Shown: piece by piece, positions 25,075 through 55,524 of the stretch
Numbering within the stretch: the first letter of the stretch is position 1
How the letters are laid out: each line of letters opens with the position of its first letter
Source: Candidatus Nezhaarchaeales archaeon
GTDB taxonomy: Archaea; Thermoproteota; Methanomethylicia; Nezhaarchaeales; WYZ-LMO8
Length of the DNA stretch: 64,000 bases
Assembly (NCBI GenBank): GCA_038887515.1
Contig: JAWAKK010000002.1
Span: 256,001 to 320,000, forward strand
Direction: 5' to 3'
Translations under genes and position numbers: made by a program
Notes under the pieces: model-generated
Database searches by the model: none
Seen by the model: the letters and a program-made list of their open reading frames with translations, nothing else
What the model was told of the DNA's origin: nothing

Positions 25075-26154
25075 TTATCTAGTTATCGTAGCTTTACTCA
25101 TGACTTCAAGTAATTCTTTGGCCTCTTTATTCGAAGAGAAGTACTTCCTAACAGGCTCAAGAACCTTCGACAACGCATCGGCTACCGCTCGTTTAAGATC
25201 CTTCGGATGTAACTCTCCTCTACTATACATTTGAAGTAGCTCACTAAAACTTTCGATCGTAACTTCTCCTCCATACTCTTTACCGCGTTCTACGTAAAGC
25301 TTGAAGCCTTGCTGAGCAAAAAGTATATGCTTGCATATCTCGATAATGGGGTTCATATTAACGATCTTCATGGGACAATAGGCATACTCTATCTTTCTCG
25401 CTATTTCTTCAGGGGGGTCGTGAACGAAGATGCAGCCTTCGGGCTTTGATTTACTCATCTTCAAATCTACTTCGTCGATTTGTTGAACGTCCATAGGCGG
25501 TCTCAAGCTTATTAGCAGAGGGGTATGTATGGCTACGGGCTTTTTTAAGTTCTTCTTTTCAGCGATCTCCCTCGCTAGCATGTGAGCTTTACGCTGATCG
25601 GTACCCCCTAAACACACGTCGAGGTCCATATAGAATATGTCCGCTATCTGCATACATGGATATATGAGCTTTGAAAAATCTAAGACACTCTCGCTCTCCT
25701 TTCTACCCATTATAGTTATGGCCCTCCGAACCCTTGCTAAAGACATACTCTTGGCTGCCGTGATGACTATTTTCCAATAATCAGGATCACTTACCAAATC
25801 CTCAGCCTTAACGTACTCCACATCGCCTTTATCAACCCCTAAAGCTTTCAATACGTGTTCAATGTAAAGGGCGCACTTATGTATAGTTTCTAGCTCACCA
25901 CCGAGCTTATCGTTAATCCAAGCATGCCACGTCGCTTCCAGTACCTTCATTTTAACTCCCACATCTAACAGGTCCCTAACTTTTCTAGCCCAAATTAGCC
26001 AACCTATGTGAAATAGGCCCGATGGTTCGACCCCTATGTAACCCTTTACGTCGCTACTCTTTAAGAGCTCGACCAGCTCAGAGAGCATTACGACCTCGGA
26101 GGTATTCCTAGTAGCCACCTTGACCTTCTCTTCAAGATCCATAGTCTCATCCAC
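25075..26154 (-). CDS. tyrS: Tyrosine-tRNA ligase
   Basis: YIGVEPSG..HIGW, IYPCMQIAD, GGTDQRK, KMSKS. Confidence 0.97.
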   Translation of the reverse strand: MDETMDLEEKVKVATRNTSEVVMLSELVELLKSSDVKGYIGVEPSGLFHIGWLIWARKVRDLLDVGVKMKVLEATWHAWINDKLGGELETIHKCALYIEHVLKALGVDKGDVEYVKAEDLVSDPDYWKIVITAAKSMSLARVRRAITIMGRKESESVLDFSKLIYPCMQIADIFYMDLDVCLGGTDQRKAHMLAREIAEKKNLKKPVAIHTPLLISLRPPMDVQQIDEVDLKMSKSKPEGCIFVHDPPEEIARKIEYAYCPMKIVNMNPIIEICKHILFAQQGFKLYVERGKEYGGEVTIESFSELLQMYSRGELHPKDLKRAVADALSKVLEPVRKYFSSNKEAKELLEVMSKATITR

Positions 26155-26157
26155 CCA

Positions 26158-26276
26158 ATTTCAGGCCGCGCCGGCTATTGCCGTGCATCGACCCACCCAG
26201 TATCATAGTATCGGGCCTGATGCCCCCTCCACGGGGACTCTCCATGCACGGCTTTTAGACCGGCGCGGCCTGAAAT
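26158..26276 (-). ncRNA. Structured K-loop RNA 1 (H/ACA-like hairpin within a 17-bp outer stem)
   Basis: Perfect 17-bp inverted repeat (26158-26174/26260-26276), 9-bp inner stem, apical CCGA-N4-ATGAT, ATA after the inner stem. G-U pairs work only on the minus strand; TATA at 26300-26294. Confidence 0.65.
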
Positions 26277-26310
26277 ATGATGTCGTCAATACCTATAAAA
26301 GTTAGTTTTA

Positions 26311-26420
26311 GAGCCGCTGGGTTTGTACCGCAGGTGGGTAAGGTGGGCGATCATTCATCGGGCCCCCCTCATTGTCTCTCCACCCCGTCGCTGCGGCTTG
26401 GGGTTTTAACCCAGCGGCTC
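26311..26420 (-). ncRNA. Structured K-loop RNA 2 (H/ACA-like hairpin within a 13-bp outer stem)
   Basis: Perfect 13-bp inverted repeat (26311-26323/26408-26420), 7-bp inner stem followed directly by ACA, apical CCGA-N3-ATGAT; TATA-like TATTAATA at 26452-26445. Confidence 0.65.
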
Positions 26421-26436
26421 GTTTTCTTACTGTTCT

Positions 26437-28122
26437 TTAAGAGATATTAATACTTGTACTCCATGCCCTATGTACTTTTGAAAGGCTTATCTCGAACGCA
26501 GCTGCGGGGGCCTGTAATCCAAACTTTAAGAGCACATCTGGCTTTATTTCGCCGATGAATCCAACGACTTCACCGTTCACGATTATCGAGCCACAACGTC
26601 CTTCTATCATTTGCTCTCTTCTATCGCTCTTAACCTCAAATTCCAAATTTAGTATCCTTAGCAGCGAATAAAGTACTGCCTGAACATCCTCATATCCAAC
26701 CTTATAATTTATGTGTACTGCAGCTAACCTTCTGTCGTAAAAGCATTTTACGTCGAAGCTTTCGTCTATTAATACTACGTCTCCAACTTCAAATATCTTT
26801 TGAGGATACTCTATGTGGGTATTCTCGGATAGGAAGTCGAGAAGAGATGGTATGAGGCTTGTTCTCAAAGAGGTGTAATCAGAAGATACTGGTTTGACTA
26901 CCCGAACCCTCTTATCGTATGAGCATGAATCGTCGAGTTTTCTATCACTTATGAACATGTAGGTCATCACTTCTTGGAATCCATAACCTATCATCAACTC
27001 ACGACAGAGTCTAGCGAAGGTTACAAGCTCCAGCTCACAGCCTTTCGTGGTTACTGGAGGTACTTCCGGGATTATCCTATTGTATCCGTAACCTATAGCA
27101 AAGTCTTCGGCCACGTCTACGTCTCCCATTACGTCAATCCTGTAGAATGGTATTAAGACGTCTAATACGCTTCCTTTTACGACCGCGTCCATTCGAGCGC
27201 GCCTTAGGCATCTAACAACTTCGTCGATCGGTTCATTAATCCCAGTTATTTCAACAATCCTGCTATAATTCACGGTTACCATCTTACATTCAGTCACAGG
27301 CTCTACCCTCTTGACAGAGGGCCCCTCTTGTATTACGAACTTGAATATTTTCCCCCCTCTTTCAGCTAAGTTAGCGGTTAAAATGGCTAGAGCGCTTCTT
27401 ACAGCCCTTAGATCTGTCCCGGTAACGTCTATAAGCAAGTTCCTGGTACTCGACGTCACCTTTGTCAAGTCCGAATTTATTATTGGAGGCATGGAAAGCA
27501 CGTTGCCGTTAGAATCTATGAGTAGCGGTGCTAACCCCCGATCTTTAATTAACCGTCCATACTCAATCCCCTTTGGATGTATTTCGATGATCTCTCTTCC
27601 ATTCATCTCTTTGTCTCCTTCCAGTGGAACGAATGAAAAGGAATCGAAGGGCTTCGCTGTATACACTATCGGAGTCCTCACTACGTCGAGGTTATGCAAA
27701 CCTATGGCGAACTTCCTACGGTTTCTGCCATGAGTTTTATGCAGCGTCTCCTGTAACTGTATCAGTTGTCTTAAACCTTCTTCTCCAAGGCTGCAATCTA
27801 CAACGGCTGCGCAAGCGACAAACGGCCTAACCTTTTCAACGATGCCATCAACTTCAACGACAAAACCGTCAGTGAGCTCCGTTATAGGGTATTTGGGGAT
27901 TCCCAGCTCTACTTCAAAGAGCCCTTTTAAGCATCTCGCAATACCCTCTGAAGAGAACATGTCTGGCCTATCGCTCGTGACTTCAAGCACCACATCGTCT
28001 GAACCGACAGCTTTAACCTCAACTTTTGTTGCCTCTAAAGCCTCTACCAGCTCGTCATCGCTTATTTCGTGTATGCCAACGAGCTTGAGAAGATCTCTCT
28101 TGCTGATGATTATAGTAGGCAA
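26437..28122 (-). CDS. pheT: Phenylalanine-tRNA ligase beta subunit
   Basis: DRPDMFSSEGIAR, LSMPPIINS, RIDV...DVAED. Confidence 0.97.
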   Translation of the reverse strand: MPTIIISKRDLLKLVGIHEISDDELVEALEATKVEVKAVGSDDVVLEVTSDRPDMFSSEGIARCLKGLFEVELGIPKYPITELTDGFVVEVDGIVEKVRPFVACAAVVDCSLGEEGLRQLIQLQETLHKTHGRNRRKFAIGLHNLDVVRTPIVYTAKPFDSFSFVPLEGDKEMNGREIIEIHPKGIEYGRLIKDRGLAPLLIDSNGNVLSMPPIINSDLTKVTSSTRNLLIDVTGTDLRAVRSALAILTANLAERGGKIFKFVIQEGPSVKRVEPVTECKMVTVNYSRIVEITGINEPIDEVVRCLRRARMDAVVKGSVLDVLIPFYRIDVMGDVDVAEDFAIGYGYNRIIPEVPPVTTKGCELELVTFARLCRELMIGYGFQEVMTYMFISDRKLDDSCSYDKRVRVVKPVSSDYTSLRTSLIPSLLDFLSENTHIEYPQKIFEVGDVVLIDESFDVKCFYDRRLAAVHINYKVGYEDVQAVLYSLLRILNLEFEVKSDRREQMIEGRCGSIIVNGEVVGFIGEIKPDVLLKFGLQAPAAAFEISLSKVHRAWSTSINIS

Positions 28123-34031: not shown

Positions 34032-34191
34032 GGGGCCGTGGTCTAGCAAGGTAGGACGACATCGGGTTATCGGCCCGGCGTTAAGGGCTCCAGAAGTCAT
34101 AGAGCTACGGGTCTGCAGACCAAGAAGGGATGATGATCTTCTGGAGCGAGAGACCCGTTGGTCGGGGGTTCAAGTCCCCCCGGCCCCACCA
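34032..34191 (+). tRNA. tRNA-Trp(CCA) with two introns (28/29: 34061-34084; about 37/38: 34094-34152); CCA encoded
   Basis: Acceptor GGGGCCG/CGGCCCC-ACCA. Removing both introns gives the anticodon arm ACGGG-CTCCAGA-CCCGT. Intron 1 forms a bulge-helix-bulge (GACG/CGTT). Confidence 0.9.
34094..34152 (+). ncRNA. Intron-encoded box C/D guide RNA (tRNA-Trp intron)
   Basis: Guide ACGGGTCTG + D' CAGA (N+5 = C39), C' ATGATGA, second guide CTTCTGGAGC complementary to the anticodon region. Terminal C and D boxes are degenerate. Confidence 0.7.
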
Positions 34192-55424: not shown

Positions 55425-55524
55425 GGGGCCGTAGTCTAGCCTGGACTAGGATGCCAGCCTGGGGAGAAGTCCCCACAACTTCACGGATCGCTGGTGATCG
55501 GGGGTTCAAATCCCCCCGGCCCCA
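55425..55524 (+). tRNA. tRNA-Pro(GGG) with a 24-nt canonical 37/38 intron (55465-55488)
   Basis: CCAGC-CTGGGG|intron|C-GCTGG; intron stem GAAGT/ACTTC; acceptor GGGGCCG/CGGCCCC-A. Confidence 0.93.

Follow-up and report, generated by a model that had tools for sequence, protein, structure and literature searches.

Which kind of RNA is encoded by the two GC-rich units that lie between pheT and tyrS in an uncultured hot-spring archaeon of the Nezhaarchaeales, and what becomes of the long helix that closes each of them? The Nezhaarchaeota are, to our knowledge, an uncultured group known only from metagenomes. The units, termed U1 and U2, are two predicted small RNA genes on the minus strand. All coordinates given here refer to the window, i.e. 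the whole 64-kb stretch of DNA that was analysed. Domain matches on both sides identified the flanking genes as PheRS beta (pheT, 26437-28122, minus strand, stop codon 26437-26439) and a tRNA-synt_1b protein of the Tyr/Trp class on the tyrS side (25075-26154, minus strand), as had been stated in a preliminary description of the locus.

The complete window was subjected to an inverted-repeat search (seed 11, length at least 12, distance at most 130). There were four repeats, two of which are the U1 and U2 units and two of which are short palindromes. U1 (26158-26276, minus strand) was delimited by its inverted repeats, folding and conservation; it is 119 nt long as an inverted repeat and about 109 nt long if transcription starts at the conserved part of the outer helix, which we call the clamp. 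U2 (26311-26420, minus strand, 110 nt) was delimited by inverted repeats, folding and covariation. Both appear to be complete, clamped units of the H/ACA type. Their GC content is 61-64%, compared with 44.6% for the genome, and among the 219 raw matches of a genome-wide descriptor scan only U1, U2 and one tRNA exceeded 60% GC. A listing of GC islands across the genome was too unspecific to be of use. Folding of the minus strand gave -74.5 kcal/mol for U1 (z -8.97) and -52.2 kcal/mol for U2 (z -4.33), values that were equalled by none of 200 shuffles in either case. Repeat search, folding and composition together bear out the earlier claim of two GC-rich units closed by perfect 17-bp and 13-bp inverted repeats. 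The minus-strand polarity claimed with it also held: U1 models scored 123.8-130.7 bits on the minus strand versus 38.7-41.1 bits on the plus strand, and in the clamp alignments G-U pairs form on the minus strand only. Of about 12.9 million records read from each of two metatranscriptome runs of the same study, none matched a 1.1-kb stretch that takes in the flanking genes as well, and the organism itself is thus not shown in them.

The order was sampled by record titles (Candidatus Nezhaarchaeota or Nezhaarchaeales) and comprises three families: f1, with nine genomes in addition to the own genome, f3 with four and f2 with one. A DNA search found matches in all nine other genomes of f1. With the U1 model, 15 of the 62 genomes of the class were positive. 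They are exactly the members of the order (in f1 the own genome and 9/9 others, in f3 4/4, in f2 1/1); the model had no match in the 47 other genomes of the class. U2 was detected in 12 of the 62 genomes with strict filters, and the remaining three f3 genomes were positive beside U1 with the filters off. When a pattern of the U1 guide sequences was searched across the phylum, 37 of 401 genomes had a match; those beyond the order look chance-like, with a reversed-pattern control matching at a similar rate. The U2 model picks up U1, with scores of 20-25 bits, in 5 of 15 loci, in agreement with the earlier view that the two units are related.

Covariation, which the preliminary description had suggested checking in relatives, turned out to be heavy in every helix, including the clamp, which has an entirely different sequence in two other families. 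In the U1 alignment 95.7% of cells were paired and 23 of 32 pairs had changed on both sides, a number reached by none of 500 shuffles; slid controls gave 4-6 pairs. For U2, the count rose from 10 of 32 pairs in nine sequences to 24 of 32 in 15 sequences.

Hairpin anatomy and class assignment

Read along the minus strand, U1 begins with the 5' arm of the clamp (26260-26276, conserved core 26260-26271), which is 100% complementary to the 3' arm over 17 bp (26158-26174). A linker follows (26253-26259) that varies among the aligned relatives in sequence and in length (5-12 nt). The basal stem P1 consists of 9 bp (26244-26252 with 26180-26188), six of which covary; its 3' strand is supported by inverted repeat and covariation, and the arms of the inner inverted repeat in the search were 26180-26191/26241-26252. 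The 5' pocket strand GGAGAGU (26237-26243) reads RGRGAGU or CGAGAGU in relatives, and the 3' pocket strand UGGGUCG (26189-26195) reads UG[G/A]GUCA. Between them lie the 5' strand of the upper stem, the K-turn and an apical C-stem hairpin (26203-26236), followed by the 3' strand of the upper stem P2 (26196-26202; 3 of 6 pairs covary). The ANA box (26176-26178), with one spacer base on either side, is AUA here and ACA in the other 13 of the 14 U1 sequences. The clamp's 3' arm then ends 15 nt ahead of the conserved tyrS ATG (26142-26140).

This anatomy is that of the revised fold, R3. RNAalifold had produced a fold with two inner hairpins (R2), which was dropped in favour of the classic hairpin once distant homologs were seen; R3 scored better in 5 of 5 held-out homologs, by a margin of 10 to 19 bits. 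It yields a 9-bp basal stem, a pocket of 7 + 7 nt and an upper stem of seven layers with one mismatch, and it places the ANA box 17 nt from the pocket top, or 16 nt in the target pairing proposed below. The K-turn has tandem G.A/A.G pairs (26229-26228 with 26204-26203) and a 3-nt bulge (26207-26205), and all 14 of the 14 U1 sequences share its motif 'GA-G ... C-NNN-GA'.

U2 is built in the same order on the minus strand. Its inverted repeat spans 22 nt at 82% complementarity (26311-26332/26399-26420), the outer 13 bp being perfect by reading. The clamp pairs 26408-26420 (5' arm) with 26311-26323 (3' arm, supported by inverted repeat and covariation). The 5' linker (26398-26407) is not conserved and measures 0-10 nt in relatives. 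A covarying basal stem P1 of 7 bp (26391-26397 with 26327-26333) is followed by the 5' pocket strand CGACGG (26385-26390), whose core GAC(A)GG is kept order-wide, as is CC[U/C]UACCC in the 3' pocket strand UUACCCAC (26334-26341). The alignments place upper stem, K-turn and apical stem at 26342-26384. The pocket has 4-6 + 6-8 nt with two G.U pairs at its top, and the upper stem, interrupted by a 1x2 internal loop, comprises 5 + 2 bp, or 9 if G.U pairs are counted. In the K-turn, whose pattern is readable in the U2 alignments, the tandem G.A/A.G pairs (26376-26375 with 26352-26351) adjoin a 3-nt bulge (26355-26353) and a closing C-G pair (26374/26356). The ACA box (26324-26326), with the clamp's 3' arm directly after it, was invariant in the first nine sequences aligned and is readable as ACA in all 15; it lies 13-15 nt from the pocket top, depending on whether the two G.U pairs open. 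Both units therefore have an apical K-turn with an apical stem of its own, and not the K-loop that had been read from the sequence initially.

Published descriptors of archaeal box H/ACA sRNAs call for a basal stem of at least 7 bp, an apical stem of at least 5 bp, pocket strands of 5-11 nt, a K-turn and an ANA motif (PMC3849170). U1 and U2 both have this succession of helix, internal loop and helix, and the helices covary. The tandem G.A/A.G pairs, the 3-nt bulge in the 3' strand and the G-C or C-G pair closing the apical side make up a candidate L7Ae site. The ANA box follows the basal stem immediately in U2 and after one spacer base in U1. The genome carries the genes of the partner proteins Cbf5 (TruB_N), Nop10 and Gar1. 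Two features depart from the class. The ANA box is not at a single-stranded 3' end, the clamp's 3' arm following after 0-1 nt, and the distance between pocket and K-turn is about seven layers in both units, compared with 5-6 bp for helix H2 in known RNAs (PMC2377435, PMC2651775); under the Pyrococcus rules given in PMC2377435, H2 is mostly 6 bp and 7 bp is non-functional. The spacing from ANA to pocket top or target uridine is given as 14-16 nt (PMC7991803) or 14-15 nt (PMC2377435).

Rfam, which the preliminary description had proposed to consult, has no described family that matches: there was no hit in the region at gathering thresholds, and at E<=10 no H/ACA family (e.g. RF00058, RF00060, RF00064 and RF00065) appeared, the Pyrococcus H/ACA entries named in PMC3849170 included. 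The sole match at E<=10, a flavivirus xrRNA, is spurious (17.6 bits versus a threshold of 50). With the hairpin anatomy, the ANA box and the conservation all in support of the H/ACA-type assignment made earlier, we regard U1 and U2 with good confidence as Cbf5/L7Ae RNAs of this type, judged by their sequences.

Transcript start and fate of the clamp

Each unit has a TATA box of its own, as claimed before, at 26294-26299 for U1 (TTTATA) and at 26445-26450 for U2 (TTAATA, within the last pheT codons), both on the minus strand. The first precedes the conserved clamp start by 22 nt and is kept in 9 of 9 family sequences, with similar boxes in G010 and G014; the second precedes the clamp by 24 nt. 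This spacing of 22-24 nt, which is fixed in relatives, puts the predicted start of the primary transcript at the clamp. The 17-bp outer stem of U1 is real as a repeat, but given the usual archaeal distance from TATA box to start, and relatives with a 12-bp clamp, its outermost 5 bp are probably upstream of the transcription start and outside the RNA.

Taken as a whole, the locus is probably best explained by two separately transcribed H/ACA guide genes that carry a clamp. Each RNA would be a classic single-hairpin guide embedded in an extra terminal helix, in which the first nucleotides of the primary transcript pair with the nucleotides that follow the ANA box. L7Ae would bind the K-turn, and the PUA domain of Cbf5, with Nop10 and Gar1, would sit on the basal stem and the ANA box. 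The latter would be presented in an asymmetric internal loop, opposite a flexible strand of 5-12 nt (the junction loop of the clamp has 5-12 nt on one side versus 4-5 nt on the other), and the pocket would pair with rRNA on either side of a target uridine. The earlier proposal that the outer helix places the ACA in an internal loop is correct, and the arrangement is conserved and covarying.

Does the clamp persist in the active RNP? We give this somewhat less than an even chance, yet regard retention in the mature RNA as the likeliest fate of the clamp. If retained, it would protect the two ends from exonucleases and, in an organism from hot springs, keep heat from fraying the short basal stem; the GC-rich helix followed by U-rich sequence may in addition aid termination. 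We tentatively propose that Nezhaarchaeales use a 'closed-end' form of H/ACA guide, whose mature RNP would have a helix between 5' and 3' ends, an internal looped-out ACA and a shifted ruler (K-turn at seven layers, ACA at 16 nt). With neither end free, such a guide would be stabilised at high temperature by its structure, where other RNAs are circularised, and Cbf5 would need a PUA domain that tolerates an ACA inside an internal loop.

The same guides could instead carry the clamp only as a precursor helix for folding, termination or processing, which is trimmed away, e.g. by a double-strand-specific or 3' trimming nuclease, so that the mature hairpin ends shortly after the ACA. Classic H/ACA RNAs do have their ANA at the 3' end of the hairpin (PMC2377435, PMC7991803). 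Further, the U2 clamp, 13 bp here, is shorter in three genomes of the order (8 bp, 5 bp and no more than 4 bp), as expected of a dispensable element; it is therefore not an obligatory recognition element. Both in the family and in G010, about 15-30 nt separate U1 from the tyrS ATG, with no TATA box between, so that U1 and tyrS may share a transcript that needs to be cut. However, the TATA spacing sets the start at the first bases of the clamp, and the 5' arm is thus no leftover of a longer precursor. The U1 clamp, moreover, is 11-17 bp long in 14 of 14 genomes and shows changes on both sides in 12 of 12 pairs, which argues for strong selection for the helix; in G014 and G010 the clamp sequence is wholly replaced with pairing retained. 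The clamps are perfect, uninterrupted helices in which no bulge-helix-bulge (two 3-nt bulges with a 4-bp helix between) was found, and a bulge-helix-bulge substrate of the splicing endonuclease, of the kind that a circular RNA precursor would offer, was rejected on that ground. An internal ANA followed by a helix is also tolerated in multi-hairpin archaeal H/ACA RNAs (PMC2377435). We consider trimming rather unlikely; should it occur, what is left is two ordinary new H/ACA genes.

Candidate targets and remaining explanations

For the clamped guides, we searched the rRNAs for sites that fit the pockets. The top register-constrained match of U1 is in 23S helix 69, where its pocket strands are complementary to sequence adjoining two uridines that are pseudouridylated in Sulfolobus. 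The 5' pocket strand forms 7 bp with LSU 2128-2134 and would fit the sequence 3' of U2126; in the 3' pocket strand, GGGUCA pairs with LSU 2126-2131 over 6 bp (by reading) and would fit the sequence 5' of U2132. U2126 would thus be held by 7 + 4 bp, the 3' guide contributing only 4 bp, and U2132 by 6 bp of the 3' guide. All order-wide variation in the U1 guide strands keeps the pairing, and the rRNA is identical in the genomes checked. In S. islandicus, two 23S sites 6 nt apart (U2060 and U2066) are assigned to one H/ACA RNA (PMC11077068).

In the scan of whole rRNAs, the best score was equalled by shuffled guides in 74 of 300 cases for U1 and in 28 of 300 for U2; with relaxed gaps this happened in 108 of 200. 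Since shuffled guides reach this score so often, complementarity alone singles out no target. When the search was restricted to the four uridines of helix 69, a region chosen after the match had been seen, 228 of 20000 shuffled U1 guides and 15 of 20000 random guides did as well. Helix 69 is most likely the site that U1 would serve, on suggestive and post hoc grounds, and U1 gives a testable prediction, namely the helix-69 pseudouridines. The 23S target proposed at first, through GUCGA, is not supported: this sequence is found in the own genome only (GUCAA or GUCAG in 8 of 9 aligned family sequences), it reaches into the basal stem by one base, the first, and the top matches of the scan contain no site of this kind. 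Pseudouridine 35 of tRNA-Tyr, considered on account of the tyrS neighbour (PMC2651775), was rejected too, as neither pocket matches pre-tRNA-Tyr (contig 3, 55-nt intron).

For U2, the rRNA scans gave no target that could be statistically distinguished from those of shuffled guides. Three sites were tried and rejected. At LSU U2164 the 3' guide forms 7 bp, but the 5' guide fails in G014 and G010, where the rRNA is the same or compensates nothing, and one 3'-guide pair is lost in G011 and G012. The other two were LSU U400 and a split match near the peptidyl-transferase region; none of the three did better than shuffled guides.

The result for U2 leaves room for K-turn RNAs of H/ACA shape that do not guide pseudouridylation, i.e. 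orphan Cbf5/L7Ae RNAs acting as chaperones of rRNA folding or as scaffolds. Their geometry is off the Pyrococcus optimum (seven layers; 16-17 nt), and the pocket strands, almost invariant across the order in both units, could be explained by any sequence-specific role. Against this, all defining parts of a guide are present, and both U1 pocket strands match a helix-69 stretch that is pseudouridylated in other archaea (PMC11077068). Guides of S. islandicus work with 6-11 bp, often mismatched (PMC11077068), and a failed target prediction is for that reason weak evidence. We therefore regard a non-guide role as improbable. As guides, U1 and U2 would be the first candidate modification guides for the Nezhaarchaeota.

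It is less probable still that the units are cis-regulatory leaders or attenuators of the aminoacyl-tRNA synthetase genes, for example an L7Ae-responsive or tRNA-sensing tyrS 5' UTR. Regulation by L7Ae through K-turns of 5' leaders has been described (PMC6298567), and in the genome analysed here the 15 nt between the end of U1 and the tyrS ATG show no promoter of their own. In G014, however, U1 lies downstream of the tyrS stop and converges on U2, so it is not a fixed tyrS leader. G011 and G012 have the order U1 then U2, the neighbouring ORFs of G011 and G013 are of other sizes, U2 is downstream of pheT and upstream of no gene, and pre-tRNA-Tyr is matched by neither pocket. A mobile or repetitive palindromic element (MITE/REP) would have long perfect terminal inverted repeats too, but it can practically be dismissed, with each unit a single copy at a single locus of the 1.29-Mb genome (dispersed copies had been named as the sign to look for), no other GC-rich copy in the descriptor scan, and syntenic, vertical conservation with compensatory substitutions across the order.

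Comparison with known guide RNAs

In the literature searched, we found no description of an extra terminal helix on an H/ACA RNA. Classic single-hairpin archaeal H/ACA sRNAs are represented by sR115 and sR435 of S. islandicus and by Pab21 and Pab91 of P. abyssi. Compared with these, U1 and U2 add a helix between 5' and 3' ends, which measures 11-17 bp in U1 and about 4-13 bp in U2, their ANA box is in an internal loop and not at a free 3' end, and they have about seven layers between pocket and K-turn where the classic RNAs have 5-6 bp. They have no similarity to the Rfam H/ACA families in sequence or covariance model. The Crenarchaeota studied so far carry two classic H/ACA RNAs per genome according to PMC11077068, and by the descriptor scan the genome analysed here likewise has exactly two units of the classic type.

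With regard to the predicted target, the nearest parallel is the atypical sR148 of S. islandicus (23S U2060 and U2066), whose two sites (PMC11077068), like the uridines that the U1 pocket strands would fit, lie 6 nt apart in the region of helix 69, the equivalence of the sites being judged by reading of the rRNA. As described there, sR148 is without a basal stem and ACA and has a single 3' guide, whereas U1 has both guides, a 9-bp basal stem, an ANA box and the clamp. The P. furiosus proteins are reported to accept atypical guides (PMC11077068). Stem-loop 2 of sR-h45 from H. volcanii (23S psi1940 and psi1942) is an H/ACA hairpin for helix 69 (PMC7075261), as is predicted for U1. It requires an unpaired UVUN (PMC7075261), and the complementarity of U1 is against that mode, with no 3'-guide pairing 5' of the first U. 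The study also reports activity when target and ACA are as much as 17 nt apart (PMC7075261), a range into which the 16-17 nt to the ANA box in U1 falls.

The ANA box of multi-hairpin archaeal H/ACA sRNAs is directly followed by another helix, as in U1 and U2 (PMC2377435). In those RNAs the next helix is a second guide hairpin, whereas in U1 and U2 the 3' arm is paired with the RNA's own 5' end. Archaeal C/D box sRNAs also have terminal stems that protect their ends. Archaeal RNAs that are circular are cited in PMC3849170. Both C/D box stems and circular sRNAs may have a role in common with the clamp, the shielding of termini in thermophiles, although U1 and U2, unlike those RNAs, have neither C/D boxes in a terminal arrangement nor a bulge-helix-bulge. 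If the clamped form is the active one, thermophilic archaea would have, in addition to terminal stems and circularisation, a third means of protecting a guide RNA.

Two GC-rich units between pheT and tyrS

The units U1 and U2 are two related predicted H/ACA-type guide RNA genes. They lie on the minus strand, as do the flanking genes, which encode PheRS-beta (26437-28122) and a Tyr/Trp-type synthetase of class I (25075-26154), with U2 running from 26420 to 26311 and U1 from 26276 to 26158, in DNA from a hot-springs metagenome. Both are GC-rich (61-64%, vs 44.6% genome-wide). An inverted-repeat search returned a perfect 17-bp repeat for U1, with a further inner repeat of 12 nt, and for U2 a repeat with a 22-nt arm at 82% complementarity whose outer 13 bp are perfect, which bears out the perfect 17-bp and 13-bp repeats of the preliminary description. 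Across all 64 kb of the window, similar thresholds give only four inverted repeats, namely those of U1 and U2 and two short palindromes. The minus-strand folds of U1 (z -8.97) and U2 (z -4.33) were not equalled or bettered by any of 200 shuffles in either case. The U1 model scored 123.8-130.7 bits on the minus strand vs 38.7-41.1 bits on the plus strand, in agreement with the polarity first proposed. As each unit is present in a single copy in its own genome (1.29 Mb, 9 contigs), we dropped the reading that U1 and U2 are repeats or MITEs. Elsewhere in the bin, contigs C5-C9 (6.6-12 kb each) lie almost wholly above 63% GC in 60-nt windows, against the same genome-wide value, and carry no tRNAs; they could have entered the bin as contamination or foreign DNA.

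As had been noted from the sequence, each unit has its own TATA-like box about 25 nt upstream. On the minus strand, TTTATA (26299-26294) precedes the conserved clamp start of U1 by 22 nt, the clamp being the terminal helix that joins the two ends of each unit, and TTAATA (26450-26445), within the last pheT codons, precedes that of U2 by 24 nt. Both boxes are conserved in the family, and A/T-rich boxes with similar spacing are found in three more distant relatives (G010, G013 and G014). The usual archaeal spacing would place the transcription start at the clamp, so that the primary transcript is predicted to begin with the 5' clamp arm; in the 17-bp repeat of the source-genome U1, the outermost 5 bp may lie upstream of this start.

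By conservation over nine genomes, tyrS starts at an ATG (26142-26140) that follows a purine-rich stretch, GGUGG/AGGU, and not at the GTG at 26154 of the listed mechanical ORF. This ATG is only 15 nt from U1, and these 15 nt contain no TATA. With the genes placed as in the source genome, transcription from the U1 promoter may continue into tyrS, and processing or a shared transcript would then be needed. U1 as a general 5' leader of tyrS is ruled out by G014, in which the pair also lies between tyrS and pheT; there tyrS is inverted and U1 thus follows the tyrS stop codon.

Hairpin, K-turn and clamp

The initial RNAalifold fold of U1 contained two small inner hairpins, one of which is broken by the distant homologs in G010-G014. 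These homologs back a classic single hairpin with a 9-bp basal stem, 7-nt pocket strands, an upper stem of seven layers with one mismatch, a K-turn and an apical stem. We built models of both folds from the same nine sequences and scored the five held-out homologs. The classic fold, which has fewer pairs, won in all five: 63.7 vs 53.7 bits (G014), 58.9 vs 49.1 (G013), 56.8 vs 42.0 (G011), 49.9 vs 31.0 (G010) and 47.6 vs 35.1 (G012). Under this fold, 95.7% of the alignment cells are paired and 23 of the 32 pairs show changes on both sides, a count reached by none of 500 shuffles, with slid controls yielding only 4-6 such pairs; the alignment contains one opposite-strand row, and a manual count on the 14 forward rows concurs. 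The apical stem, for instance, occurs as GGGC/GCCC, GGGCC/GGCCU and GGUCU/AGACC. For U2, RNAalifold with nine family sequences gave a clamp of 12-13 bp as the outermost element; within it come a 5' linker that is not conserved, a basal stem of 7 bp, the pocket, an upper stem and, innermost, an apical stem. Compensatory changes occur at 10/32 pairs in these nine sequences and at 24/32 in 15 sequences, in an alignment that was fitted to the model and thus favours the structure. The check for covariation in relatives, named beforehand, was therefore positive for both units.

Like archaeal H/ACA RNAs, both hairpins carry the standard K-turn pattern with its non-canonical stem on the pocket side. 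Its 5' strand reads N-GA, followed by the first base of the apical stem; its 3' strand consists of the last apical-stem base, three bulged nucleotides, GA and the upper stem. The bulge is UAU, UGU, AGU, GAG or AAG in U1; conservation in U2 covers the C-G closing pair, the N-R-U bulge and the two GA dinucleotides. Of the K-loop first proposed, the L7Ae-type motif stood, with the pattern present in 14/14 U1 sequences and readable in U2; since an apical stem follows, it is a K-turn and not a K-loop. In the apical part of family U2 (26356-26374), a second tandem G.A/A.G with a 2-nt bulge lies two base pairs above the K-turn, and may represent another register of the K-turn or an additional L7Ae site; it is absent from G014, G011 and G013.

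The ANA box lies 0-1 nt past the basal stem and is ACA in 13/14 U1 sequences (AUA in the source genome) and in 15/15 U2 sequences. The 3' arm of the clamp begins 0-1 nt after it, and the facing 5' strand is an unconserved stretch of 5-12 nt, except in the U2 of G011, where the 5' linker is missing and the ACA occupies a 5-nt bulge flanked by stacked helices. In U1, the clamp measures 11-17 bp in 14/14 genomes and covaries at 12/12 pairs; the clamp sequences of G014 and G010 are wholly unlike those of the family and still pair. In U2, family clamps measure 12-13 bp; elsewhere they come to 8+4 bp (G014), 6+5 bp (G010), 8 bp (G011), 5 bp (G013) and no more than 4 bp (G012). An outer clamp that places the ACA in an internal loop, as initially described, is thus upheld.

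Distribution, linkage and guide RNA inventory

DNA searches found U1 and U2 adjacent in all nine other family genomes (74-86% identity) and only short chance-level matches beyond the family. An exact-pattern scan with the conserved U1 core hit seven DNA stretches, all from metagenome-assembled genomes. The U1 covariance model detected 15 of the 62 genomes of the class, which make up the whole order (the source genome and 9/9 others of its family, and 4/4 and 1/1 of the two other families), and none of the 47 genomes in the other six families. The U2 model detected 12/62 under strict filters and, with filters off, U2 beside U1 in the remaining three genomes of the four-genome family (E 1.5e-4 to 7.4e-3). 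It also cross-matches U1 at 5/15 loci (20-25 bits), in support of the claimed relatedness of the units. U2 precedes U1 in the family and G010, and follows it in G011 and G012; the two are convergent in G014 and about 480 nt apart in G013. The linkage thus persists across the order despite changed order and orientation, and the position between pheT and tyrS is kept in only some genomes.

Genes for Cbf5 (TruB_N), Nop10 and Gar1 are present in the genome. We scanned it for an ANA beside a stem of 7 bp or more, flanked by a clamp of 9 bp or more. Among 219 raw matches, only U1, U2 and one tRNA exceeded 60% GC; the genome therefore holds two classic-type H/ACA candidates, the scan covering the classic type with a clamp. 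The Cbf5 match consists of two separate parts (contig 2: 333869-334231, beyond the window), and an in-frame TAA falls in the first of them, inside a 345-aa frame. This could reflect an mRNA intron as in S. islandicus, whose cbf5 is split by an intron and whose protein is described as 'two exon-encoded fragments' (PMC11077068), or a frameshift.

Candidate targets and comparison with known H/ACA RNAs

As targets, we located the genome's own 16S, 23S and 5S rRNAs and 46 tRNAs, 20 of which are listed with an intron. Several tRNA introns are long (window 34032-34188 and 55425-55524; contig 3: 60050-60179); according to ARAGORN, a 157-nt tRNA of the window has an insert of 80 nt and tRNA-Tyr(GUA) an intron of 55 nt. 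The 23S gene (contig 2: 229902-233046) has 3145 nt vs a 2987-position model, and its peptidyl-transferase-centre region departs from usually near-universal motifs, e.g. at LSU 2653-2720 and 2780-2810, several conserved-motif regexes for this region finding no match. The unusual sequence recurs in G008, G009, G010 and G014 and is thus characteristic of the lineage rather than an error of assembly.

When the pocket register was held constant (0-2 nt slack), the top rRNA sites were LSU U2126 for U1 (3' guide 4 bp, 5' guide 7 bp) and LSU U2164 for U2 (7 bp and 5/6 bp). Shuffled guides matched the best score somewhere in the rRNAs in 74/300 (U1) and 28/300 (U2) cases, so neither site is better than what shuffled guides often reach. 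At U2164 the 3' guide of U2 is good, the 5' guide misfits in G014 and G010, and one pair is lost to C92 in G011 and G012. For U2, whose conserved pocket cores are GAC(A)GG (5' strand) and CC[U/C]UACCC (3' strand), further candidates at LSU U400, in the A-loop region and close to the peptidyl-transferase centre (a split match) did not rise above chance. Neither pocket fits pre-tRNA-Tyr.

The case for U1 gains from context. We take U2126 to be E. coli 1917, in helix 69. The 3' guide GGGUCA is a perfect 6-bp complement of the six bases that immediately precede U2132, which lies six nucleotides downstream of U2126. All U1 guide variants in the order (A, G or C at the first 5'-guide base, A-to-G within it, G-to-A in the 3' guide) still pair with the rRNA stretch, which is identical in five genomes checked. 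In a test on the four uridines of helix 69, picked after the match had been seen, the observed score was reached by 228/20000 shuffled U1 guides and 15/20000 random ones. The pocket search proposed in the preliminary description yielded a candidate site for U1, favoured by a post hoc test, and, for U2, a best site within the shuffle range. In S. islandicus, a single H/ACA RNA makes two 23S pseudouridines with the same 6-nt spacing as the predicted U1 sites, U2066 and U2060, the latter equated with E. coli 1917 (PMC11077068). The study also gives two classic H/ACA RNAs each for S. islandicus and Pyrobaculum, the number of candidates found here, plus several atypical ones.

The search of Rfam, likewise named beforehand, matched no described family to U1 or U2. 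In the text of the literature searched, we found no terminal clamp described for any H/ACA RNA and nothing relevant on sRNAs of Nezhaarchaeota. U1 and U2 show the stems, pocket, K-turn and ANA of the published descriptors (PMC3849170). The pocket-to-K-turn helix is mostly 6 bp in Pyrococcus, where 7 bp is non-functional (PMC2377435), vs about seven layers in U1 and U2. The ANA distance of U1 is 16-17 nt. Reported values are 14-15 nt for Pyrococcus and, across archaea, 14-16 nt (PMC7991803); a Haloferax-guide study found distances of up to 17 nt to be tolerated in vitro (PMC7075261). The archaeal rules place the ANA at a free 3' end, whereas in the predicted RNAs U1 and U2 a conserved, covarying end-clamp follows it, which makes them a new structural variant of H/ACA RNA from an unstudied lineage.
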